A stretch of DNA of 64,000 nucleotides, taken from positions 25,558-89,557 of the forward strand of contig CALXYE010000072.1 of NCBI GenBank assembly GCA_944392845.1. The letters are read 5' to 3'. Under the pieces are notes generated by a model. The model was not told where the DNA came from and did not search any database. It worked only from the letters and a program-made list of their open reading frames with translations. Position numbers and translations under genes: made by a program. Shown in pieces: positions 56,762 through 57,970 of the stretch. Source of the stretch: an uncultured Alphaproteobacteria bacterium (GTDB lineage Bacteria; Pseudomonadota; Alphaproteobacteria; CAAGCB01; CAG-977). Numbering within the stretch: position 1 is the first letter of the stretch; each line of letters begins with the position of its first letter.

Positions 56762-57385
56762 ATGGTTCAGGATAATTATACGCATCAAAAAAGGGCGCGC
56801 AAAAAGGGCGGCTTGGCGATTTACGGTTACAATGACGGCAAGAAAAAGACGGCTCCGCCGAAAATGCAGCTGGAGGTCGCCGGCGCGGGCGGCGTGAAAT
56901 TCGGTTTTACGGCGATCAACGGGTTTTCATTGATCAATAAAGAATATAAAACGCCGCCGAAGCGTCAGCGCGAAATAACTCGCGACGATTTTAAAAAGAA
57001 CGTTCGTCCCGCATTTTTGAAGTATATTGCCAAGCATTATGAAGCTCAGTTGAGAAAAATCGGCGTTACGGATGCGGGATTGGCCAGGATGAGAAACGGC
57101 ATCGGCGTCAACGGTTATAACGTTCATCACAAGCTGCCGATCCACGGCGGCGGCACGAATGATTTTTCGAATTTGATTTTTATGCCGATTCCTCCCCACG
57201 ATGAATTGCATAACAAGGTCATTAATCCGCAGATTAAAAATCTCGATACCCGCATGGGCGTGACGATAAAGTTGCCCTGGCGCGAAGGAATGGTGTGGGA
57301 ACGTCCCCTGAACGCGAGGGAAAACGTTCAATCCAAACCCGCGTTAATGGTCGCCCGCGTAAAACAAAAAGCGGACGGACGTTAA
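56762..57385 (+). CDS. Stand-alone colicin-type HNH DNase domain protein (paralog 4)
   Basis: VNGYNVHHKLPIHGGGTNDFSNLIFMPIPPHDELHNKV, with RBS AGAGGG. It closely resembles paralog 1. Confidence 0.7.
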   Translation: MVQDNYTHQKRARKKGGLAIYGYNDGKKKTAPPKMQLEVAGAGGVKFGFTAINGFSLINKEYKTPPKRQREITRDDFKKNVRPAFLKYIAKHYEAQLRKIGVTDAGLARMRNGIGVNGYNVHHKLPIHGGGTNDFSNLIFMPIPPHDELHNKVINPQIKNLDTRMGVTIKLPWREGMVWERPLNARENVQSKPALMVARVKQKADGR

Positions 57386-57508
57386 AATCCGTTGTCGAAA
57401 CGGCATTTATCGTTTAATGATAAGAAATGCAGATAAAAAAGTTTTTATCCTTTGTGTACGGACGAAACTTTTTTACGGAAACAACTTTTTTGGGAATGGT
57501 TTAGTACG

Positions 57509-57970
57509 ATGACGATGGAAGAAATTCTGAACACTTTGTCCGAAGAAGACGGCGCGATGATTGTCCGTCCCGCTTCCAGCAAGGATTTGGCACAATGCCA
57601 AAAGGATATGGCCGAGATCGAAATGCATCCCGTTCCTCAGGGATATATTGATTTTTTGCGCGAAGTGAACGGATTCGCCTGGAACGGCATCGAATTTTAC
57701 AGCACCGATCAGGTAACCGATCCCGAAAGTAATTACACGCTTTTGGATATTGTTACGGCAAACGAGGATTTTGCCGAATACAACGACGACCTGCCCGATT
57801 GCGTTCTTTTGGGGCGCGCCGATGACGATCTGTACGTCTATAATACCGCGAATTCCAAATACGAAGTGTTGGATTTCACGGGTCACGACGTTATGGAAGA
57901 CTATGACACCTTTGACGCTTTGTTCGAAAACGTCGTTTCTCCGCGCATGATTACGGGTGACGAAGAATAA
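57509..57970 (+). CDS. SUKH (SMI1/KNR4)-like putative immunity protein. The ATG at 57509 is preferred over the TTG at 57452.
   Basis: An acidic protein of about 150 aa with an SMI1/KNR4-like N-terminal motif PVPQGYIDFLREVNGFAWNGIEFY. It lies immediately downstream of an HNH DNase gene. Confidence 0.55.
   Translation: MTMEEILNTLSEEDGAMIVRPASSKDLAQCQKDMAEIEMHPVPQGYIDFLREVNGFAWNGIEFYSTDQVTDPESNYTLLDIVTANEDFAEYNDDLPDCVLLGRADDDLYVYNTANSKYEVLDFTGHDVMEDYDTFDALFENVVSPRMITGDEE

Follow-up and report, generated by a model that had tools for sequence, protein, structure and literature searches.

HNH4 and SUKH are two adjacent genes in a 64,000-nucleotide stretch of contig CALXYE010000072.1 (GenBank assembly GCA_944392845.1) from an uncultured gut alphaproteobacterium; this whole stretch is referred to below as the window. 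HNH4 encodes a stand-alone, strongly basic nuclease of the HNH (beta-beta-alpha-Me) type, and SUKH encodes a small acidic protein of the SUKH (SMI1/KNR4) superfamily. The best explanation of their association, which we consider probable, is that HNH4 is an active DNase of the colicin/YhhZ type and SUKH its inhibitor, that the one SUKH serves all HNH paralogs, and that the nucleases are exported antibacterial toxins. The kind of pair is already known, joining the YrhA subfamily of SUKH proteins to the HNH clade found at the C-terminus of YhhZ (YhhZ-CT); its evolutionary mode is unusual. The two genes and the catalytic motif are placed as follows.

56762..57385, plus strand: HNH4, a stand-alone basic HNH (beta-beta-alpha-Me) nuclease of 207 amino acids, isoelectric point (pI) 10.3.
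57113..57211, plus strand: the catalytic motif GYNVHHKLPIHGGGTNDFSNLIFMPIPPHDELH of HNH4 (residues 118-150), with putative catalytic residues H122, H123, N137, H146 and H150.
57509..57970, plus strand: SUKH (SMI1/KNR4, YrhA family), 153 amino acids, pI 4.05, a predicted inhibitor or immunity protein.

HNH4 starts with an ATG preceded at about 7 nt by a Shine-Dalgarno-like AAGAGGG, and the product carries a net charge of +21. Its N-terminus (residues 1-40) is basic and disordered; a folded core occupies residues 45-185, and the protein closes with a C-terminal tail that ends in Gly-Arg. The AlphaFold2 model is confident over residues 45-185, where it forms a beta-beta-alpha finger, and disordered at residues 1-40 and 190-203. 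The motif falls on strands 119-123 and 138-142 and on helix 143-158, and HNH4 possesses the beta-beta-alpha-metal core with the HH, N, H and H residues in place. Among 94 family members, H122, H123 and N137 never vary, while the conservation of H146 and H150 is at least 90%. The N-x8-H-x3-H spacing of the finger equals that of colicin E9. When a profile of the HNH family is compared with the PDB, it matches Cas8f-HNH (E 5e-5), the DNase of pyocin AP41 (E 5e-3) and also the pyocin S2 DNase. Searches of the PDB with the single proteins gave weak HNH-motif matches for HNH4 and noise for SUKH, the profiles performing better (Cas8f-HNH and AP41 for the nuclease, Lin2918 for SUKH). Rehh, a "deeply divergent HNH", was also considered and put aside; its preprint describes it as unrecognisable by sequence (bioRxiv 10.64898/2026.09.22.753552), whereas the HNH4 family has a classical motif.

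The initial annotation described an acidic protein of about 150 amino acids some 120 nt downstream of the nuclease and noted its resemblance to SUKH proteins. The actual values are 153 amino acids, a spacer of 123 nt and a pI of 4.05 (net charge -29), and a second ATG at 57515 is an equally possible start, with orthologues beginning at the equivalent MxxI(D/E)DIL. The resemblance is borne out at the level of both family and fold; a missing SUKH fold, part of the refuting outcome named in the annotation, is not observed. Pfam SMI1_KNR4 (PF09346) gives a marginal match of 26.6 bits (cutoff 25.4), with SUKH_5 and SUKH_6 just below threshold; the NCBIfam model NF038335, "YrhA family protein", reaches 103.8 bits (cutoff 55, E 7.2e-30). 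An AlphaFold2 model built from 66 homologs has a mean predicted local distance difference test (pLDDT) score of 93.6, and its top four Foldseek matches in the PDB are the SUKH structures YobK (2prv; E 1.7e-5, template-modelling (TM) score 0.68), BF1740 (3d5p), Lin2918 (2icg) and PSPTO_5518 (2pag). The first three have E values of at most 5e-4 and 2pag one of 1e-2, with TM scores of 0.54-0.68; the SUKH family profile also has a weak sequence match to Lin2918. The product of 57509-57970 belongs to the YrhA subfamily of SUKH proteins. Its charge complementarity with HNH4 is extreme (pI 4.05 against 10.3), and its predicted role is most likely to bind and neutralise HNH4.

The HNH domain recurs widely as the C-terminal part of toxins. 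An exhaustive search with the family profile recovered 1133 clusters (50% identity) at E <= 1e-3 and 539 at E <= 1e-10, and in many of them profile positions ~53-183 lie at the extreme C-terminus of proteins of 300-700 amino acids. A Pfam scan of 20 long proteins found a recognisable N-terminal module in ten: LXG (two), Tox-PAAR-like (three), PT-HINT, PT-TG, RHS, DUF4280 and a Portal_Mu fragment. The HNH domain therefore qualifies as a genuine warhead of polymorphic toxins. In a Firmicute genome of 4.5 Mb, an LXG-HNH toxin gene precedes that of a 151-amino-acid SUKH (SUKH profile 6e-21), and a PAAR-like-HNH toxin located downstream of VgrG and DUF2169 is followed by a 149-amino-acid protein (SUKH profile 2e-18). 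The presence of a YrhA-type SUKH downstream of each of the two toxins checked makes the toxin-immunity reading well supported. A gammaproteobacterial contig holds the same HNH-SUKH pair (SUKH profile 1e-17), and a cassette of a YhhZ-CT-type HNH and a YrhA-type SUKH thus keeps its form in different phyla and secretion systems. Zhang, Iyer and Aravind described a SUKH-HNH linkage in 2011 (PMC3113570), with which this distribution agrees. The proposal of the initial annotation that the family consists of genuine toxin-type DNases gains support at the sequence level from the colicin-type motif, the homology to the YhhZ C-terminus, the use of the domain as the C-terminal part of known toxins and the YrhA-type SUKH downstream.

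The closest named relative of HNH4 is Escherichia coli K-12 YhhZ (b3442). Residues 257-383 of YhhZ align with the family profile over 125 columns (hhalign 99.1%, E 4.5e-19), and BLASTP against HNH4 gives 39% identity over 95 amino acids (E 3e-15), with a common NVHHKL..GGTNDF.NL motif. The gene that follows yhhZ, yrhA, encodes a protein that matches the window SUKH by BLASTP (9e-6) and the SUKH profile (3e-8, with the E. coli YrhA fragment). In the K-12 locus yhhZ spans 1364-2542 and yrhA 2539-3810 of the extracted region (L077), and yrhA is disrupted by IS1E. K-12 YhhZ apparently lacks the last histidine of the finger (PYHKVFT in place of PPHDELH), which would fit an inactivated toxin in a strain devoid of a type VI secretion system (T6SS). 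Hcp-ET1 presumably belongs to the YhhZ family. YhhZ has been placed among the polymorphic toxin proteins of the Hcp1 family, with a His-Me finger of group 32 (PMC5714182), and Hcp-ET1 is an Hcp-fused HNH-DNase reported to be delivered by T6SS2 in E. coli strains that make Shiga toxin (STEC; review PMC6730261).

The window pair and YhhZ-YrhA share a homologous nuclease domain, the same YrhA/SUKH family downstream and the same order of toxin and immunity gene. They differ in that the window pair has no Hcp or other carrier and possesses instead a basic N-terminus of 45 amino acids with a YxHxKR motif and an Arg-ending tail; moreover, the window family is multi-paralog and vertically inherited, with no T6SS genes seen nearby. 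With the nuclease bacteriocins (colicins E2/E7/E9 and their Im proteins, pyocins S2 and AP41), the pair shares the HH..N..H...H metal-finger, a helical region before the finger and an acidic inhibitor directly downstream. However, the SUKH alpha/beta fold is distinct from the four-helix Im fold, and HNH4, at only 207 amino acids, lacks receptor-binding and translocation domains and a lysis gene and carries an extra beta extension of ~35 amino acids and a tail past the finger. Bacillus subtilis YobL-YobK is an LXG toxin with a SUKH; the SUKH model finds its best structural match in YobK (2prv), at an identity of 16%. The YobL toxin domain is not known to belong to the HNH4 family. SUKH-associated HNH polymorphic toxins (PMC3113570, PMC3482391) resemble the pair in their AP41/colicin-related HNH and downstream SUKH immunity gene. 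Unlike polymorphic toxin systems as defined by Zhang et al. in 2012 (PMC3482391), the window pair shows no trafficking module, no strain polymorphism or cassette exchange and no poly-immunity array, and its immunity gene evolves more slowly than housekeeping genes. Two polymorphic-toxin features and the bacteriocin architecture are absent, and the pair is therefore best described as a carrier-less, multiplied and vertically fixed derivative of the YhhZ/YrhA cassette.

The domain also occurs at the C-terminus of phage proteins (P0299; L071/L072, 5001-5435), among them a fusion to a Mu-portal fragment. A prophage origin of the pair was considered and rejected: PHROGs yielded only two families of unknown function (phrog_31266 and phrog_14497, with the domain C-terminal), and a scan of viral contigs gave two matches at 28% identity.

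The pair sits within a conserved chromosomal neighbourhood, whose nearest elements are listed here.

55945..56601, plus strand: DTW-domain gene upstream of HNH4 (Pfam DTW 7e-37).
56602..56761, plus strand: upstream spacer of 160 nt, 33% GC, a possible promoter region of the pair.
57386..57508, plus strand: HNH4-SUKH spacer of 123 nt, 33% GC.
57986..59041, plus strand: queA, 15 nt past SUKH (Pfam Queuosine_synth 1e-125).

SUKH directly follows an orthologous HNH gene in all of the ~29 orthologous loci recovered, and the same pairing recurs in independent contexts, far beyond chance. The block comprises three HNH genes on the minus strand, PDT, OMP, TerC, HSP20, DUF1150, DTW, HNH4, SUKH, queA and Ros/MucR, in that order. 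It recurs in "Acetobacter sp. CAG:977", where HNH4 is 77% identical, and in metagenome-assembled genomes (MAGs) down to 49% HNH4 identity. The whole block is syntenic over a family-level clade of gut and rumen Alphaproteobacteria, and it is core-genomic and vertically inherited. In the deep relatives SZUA-500 (a Rhodospirillales MAG) and JBFXJJ01 the arrangement is PDT on the minus strand followed by HNH, HNH, SUKH and queA, which is probably the ancestral, operon-like state. SUKH-queA adjacency is kept even in deep relatives (L038, L056, L073), and DTW, a tRNA-modification gene, lies upstream in the gut clade. One contig filed under "Limosilactobacillus gorillae" (L024, CAVCSV010000002.1) holds the full alphaproteobacterial block, including the HNH array, HNH4, SUKH and queA, and is probably mis-binned or contaminating.

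The gap between HNH and SUKH is ~70-120 nt in gut-clade orthologues and 4 nt in one deep relative (JBFXJJ01, L073), lengths that are consistent with co-transcription. HNH4 and SUKH are probably co-transcribed. The terminator scan of the HNH4-SUKH spacer found only a 5-bp stem without a T run, none convincing. A sigma-70-like site lies upstream of the pair at 56682-56711 (TTGTCA, 18-nt spacer, TAAAAT; 10 of 12 positions), and such sites occur in the scan at the frequency expected from shuffled sequence, making it weak evidence for a promoter. An Rfam search of the whole window returned a single tRNA and no RNA element in the spacers. Two ORFs run antisense to the pair, at 56927-57331 (minus strand, over HNH4) and 57473-58108 (minus strand, over SUKH and queA), encoding 134 and 211 amino acids; they are probably spurious, being supported neither by homologs nor by gene calls in relatives.

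The rate at which the inhibitor evolves is unusual. Across orthologous loci, SUKH is 82-98% identical, the highest in the block, compared with 75-91% for Ros/MucR, 74-89% for queA and 49-77% for HNH4, and it reaches 97-98% in relatives where queA is only 82-89% identical. Against two close relatives, nonsynonymous divergence (dN) is 0.017 for SUKH, 0.06-0.13 for queA and 0.13-0.21 for HNH4. Ratios to synonymous divergence (dN/dS) are well below 1 for all of them and are rough values, as dS is saturated (>=1); only dN and the identities are therefore taken as rate measures. In two genomes (L035, L039) HNH4 is missing from its place between the DTW/TM1266-like genes and SUKH, while SUKH remains intact at 81-82% identity, with an HNH array ~4.5-7 kb away. 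In the place of HNH4, L035 has ~540 nt of AT-rich non-coding DNA (1084-1620), and L039 has 93 nt only (2643-2736).

HNH4 is one of several related nucleases, three of which form a tandem array in the window.

50447..51106, minus strand: HNH1, tandem array; 219 amino acids as the longest ORF and 213 as called in a near-identical contig (profile E 3e-90).
51161..51745, minus strand: HNH2, tandem array; 194 amino acids as the longest ORF and 192 as called (profile E 1e-60).
51736..52539, minus strand: HNH3, tandem array; 267 amino acids as the longest ORF and 249 as called (profile E 8e-65).

The initial annotation placed HNH4, at 207 amino acids, as a fourth paralog about 4 kb from this array, and the alignment agrees: HNH4 is 45%, 30% and 35% identical to HNH1 (50447-51106), HNH2 (51161-51745) and HNH3 (51736-52539), across a gap of 4.2 kb (52539 to 56762). 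The four sequences share 32 invariant columns centred on NGYNVHHKLPIHGGGTNDFSNLIFMPIPPHDELH, including N120, H122, H123, G129-G131, N133, N137, H146 and H150. The idea of a family of four does not hold. Most related genomes have six HNH copies: four at the DTW/queA locus and two (230-290 amino acids) in another housekeeping neighbourhood, that of Maf, RNase G, YacG, LolA and FtsK, with no SUKH within ~8 kb of this second locus. Whether a single SUKH cross-protects against the other paralogs, a question raised in the same annotation, is sharpened by genomes that keep SUKH without HNH4 and by those in which SUKH follows a tandem HNH pair. UMGS1574 (L018, 397-3215) has an extra array copy, and one of its copies is apparently frameshifted, with adjacent profile matches at 2529-2660 and 2580-3215. 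A single tRNA gene (50101-50172, minus strand) lies ~275 nt from the end of the tandem array.

The stand-alone nucleases have conserved termini, which in HNH4 are located as follows.

56762-56797, plus strand: residues 1-12 of HNH4, the N-terminal motif, family-wide in P0001-P0117 and P0238-P0265.
57317-57382, plus strand: residues 186-207 of HNH4, the C-terminal motif, with the same family-wide distribution.

A YxHxKR motif is conserved at the N-terminus across the stand-alone HNH family, with H8 at least 90% conserved, within a basic disordered stretch. The C-terminus is a basic helix (A..LAKK...GR) in a tail of ~20-30 amino acids past the HNH domain, and it ends in Arg in 106 of 117 homologs (GR in 64, RR in 18). 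Among more distant representatives, an Arg end is found in 35 of 87 short proteins versus 6 of 53 long polymorphic toxins. Long polymorphic toxins with the same HNH domain have neither the YxHxKR motif nor the Arg-ending tail. The conserved termini are candidate signals that could act in export, processing or SUKH binding.

Homologs of SUKH also occur alone in other phyla, at the sites given below.

L065, 5001-5456: orphan SUKH in Treponema.
L066, 5001-5459: orphan SUKH in Prevotellaceae.
L068 and L069, 5001-5462: orphan SUKH genes.
L080 and L081, 5001-5396: orphan SUKH genes.

These lone homologs, at ~50-62% BLAST identity and with no HNH nearby, come from Treponema, Prevotellaceae, a termite-gut MAG and a Bacteroidota-like context, and two of them belong to one assembly (GCA_003324365.1). 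In a rough neighbour-joining tree without support values, the orphans nest within the alphaproteobacterial SUKH clade. Alignment-wide identities to the window SUKH are 65% for Treponema P0187 and 62% for the Bacteroidota-like P0198, above the 58-59% of deep alphaproteobacterial copies; Prevotellaceae P0235 (58%) and termite-gut P0222 (56%) are about level with the deep alphaproteobacterial SUKH. The nesting and the identities suggest that the orphan immunity gene has spread horizontally.

Taken together, these features can be assembled into a mechanism, in which fold, motif, homology, linkage, synteny and rates are observed and catalysis, binding, cross-protection and export are predicted. HNH4 would be an active, non-specific metal-finger (beta-beta-alpha-metal) DNase. 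In the cytoplasm of the producer, the acidic SUKH would bind the basic HNH4 and block its DNA-binding or active-site face, the mode by which immunity proteins of the SUKH superfamily are thought to act. The pair would descend from the toxin-immunity cassette that ends Hcp (YhhZ-YrhA), PAAR-like, LXG and RHS polymorphic toxins. In the gut and rumen Alphaproteobacteria clade this cassette would have been fixed in the core chromosome and passed on vertically, with the nuclease multiplied to about six stand-alone paralogs. Only one SUKH gene was found within 8 kb of any paralog, and this single SUKH would neutralise all of them via a surface that is invariant among them, and such multi-partner constraint would explain both the slowest evolution in the neighbourhood and the retention of SUKH where HNH4 has been lost. 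The HNH nucleases would be exported, and the YxHxKR motif with its basic stretch and the Arg-ending tail may serve as recognition signals. That they are antibacterial weapons is probable, since all recognisable relatives of the cassette are such weapons and close orphan copies of the inhibitor are present in unrelated gut bacteria.

Several results weigh against this explanation. Pfam HNH scores 16.3 bits on HNH4, below its cutoff of 21.4, and Pfam Colicin-DNase and Col-Pyo_DNase score ~15 bits on HNH1 against cutoffs of 25-27; the HNH domain is a separate clade without a dedicated Pfam model. HNH4 has no Pfam trafficking module and no signal peptide, and its residues 1-40 are free of domains. 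Neither a carrier domain nor a lysis gene accompanies it, and the 15-nt gap from SUKH to queA leaves no room for a lysis ORF. Purifying selection on both genes, a syntenic locus and the absence of strain-level polymorphism are unlike a toxin-immunity arms race. Five of the approximately six paralogs have no adjacent immunity gene. The examined region spans ~8 kb on either side of each HNH locus, and a further SUKH elsewhere in the genomes is possible. Domains of secretion systems, T6SS included, are missing from the 20 large ORFs of 1-37 kb and from the genes within 10 kb of the pair, a scan that left 37.5-45 kb and small ORFs outside, and literature searches found no reports of secretion systems in RF32-type Alphaproteobacteria. 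The scanned parts of the window are housekeeping in character (Rho, HisB, HslU, ParAB, RsmI, HrcA, LeuRS, Lgt, Prs, YchF and a porin), and two ORFs of 340 and 431 amino acids (30071-31093, plus strand; 34360-35655, minus strand) have no Pfam match at E <= 1e-5. The close lone SUKH homologs in other phyla also allow a role for SUKH that is independent of the nuclease.

The main rival, which we rate as rather unlikely, is a domesticated intracellular module. Under this explanation the HNH proteins are never exported and act on the cell's own or invading DNA, for example in stress- or phage-triggered degradation or in nucleotide salvage, with SUKH as a stable, dosage-limited inhibitor. It fits core-genome behaviour: synteny is maintained over family-level divergence, the paralogs occupy housekeeping contexts, SUKH is under stronger purifying selection than its housekeeping neighbours, and there is no trafficking domain in the protein or secretion-system domain in the window parts scanned. 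However, the homologous domain and its SUKH cassette occur in bona fide secreted toxins, and the conserved terminal motifs resemble recognition signals. The close orphan SUKHs in unrelated gut phyla are easier to understand as protection from an incoming toxin. Finally, none of five proteins tested matches a PADLOC defence model, which provides no support for a known anti-phage system.

The remaining alternatives, coincidental adjacency, inactive paralogs and a recent island, are each contradicted by specific results. It is improbable that HNH4 and SUKH are merely neighbours, with SUKH serving some other conserved function that may be linked to queA. SUKH-queA adjacency is indeed conserved more deeply than SUKH-DTW adjacency, SUKH is kept without HNH4 and evolves very slowly, and orphan homologs exist elsewhere, but genes of the two families stand side by side in at least four independent contexts that lack queA (yhhZ-yrhA, LXG, PAAR-like/VgrG and the gammaproteobacterial contig), and the charge complementarity of the two proteins is extreme. 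Slightly less credible still is the proposal that the paralogs have no catalytic activity and bind DNA in the manner of histones, as derivatives of a toxin domain for which no immunity protein would be needed. The proteins are small, very basic and multi-copy, most have no immunity gene next to them, and K-12 YhhZ itself is without the last motif histidine; against this, every paralog group keeps the HH, N, H and H residues with little or no variation, and a conserved SUKH partner would be purposeless.

A mobile polymorphic-toxin islet recently inserted between DTW and queA is very improbable: the AT-rich spacers, a pair GC of 0.48-0.49 against 0.506 for the window and the tRNA gene next to the array would fit it, but order and orientation are identical down to 49% HNH4 identity, deep relatives also have HNH-SUKH-queA, the vicinity showed no integrase, transposase or repeats, and viral matches are almost absent. 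The AT-rich spacers reported on both sides of the pair in the initial annotation exist on one side only, as the DTW-HNH4 and HNH4-SUKH spacers have 33% GC (window, 50.6%) and the SUKH-queA spacer (57971-57985) is 15 nt of 67% GC. Its description of the pair as wedged between DTW and queA names the flanking genes correctly and is otherwise misleading, since the SUKH-queA adjacency is ancient and points to no recent insertion.

The explanation of HNH4 as an exported DNase and SUKH as its inhibitor can be extended, tentatively, to a larger and more doubtful picture. In it, the clade would have domesticated a YhhZ-type cassette into about six vertically inherited, carrier-less DNases held by one extremely conserved "master" SUKH, with a delivery route not yet described for toxins of this class, for which the termini may serve as signals, and the orphan SUKHs in Treponema and probable Bacteroidota would be horizontally acquired defences. 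If true, the orphan SUKHs would be a trace, left in genomes, of DNase warfare between phyla in the gut.

The pair itself is one more member of the textbook HNH-SUKH toxin-immunity pairs. Its broader significance lies in a normally mobile, fast-evolving toxin cassette that has been frozen into a core genome, with an inhibitor that evolves several-fold more slowly than queA. It would offer a natural system in which one immunity protein faces many diverged toxins, a case of toxin export without a carrier, and orphan immunity genes that may record antagonism across phyla. It may also open a functional route to E. coli YhhZ/YrhA and to an uncultured but common group of gut Alphaproteobacteria.

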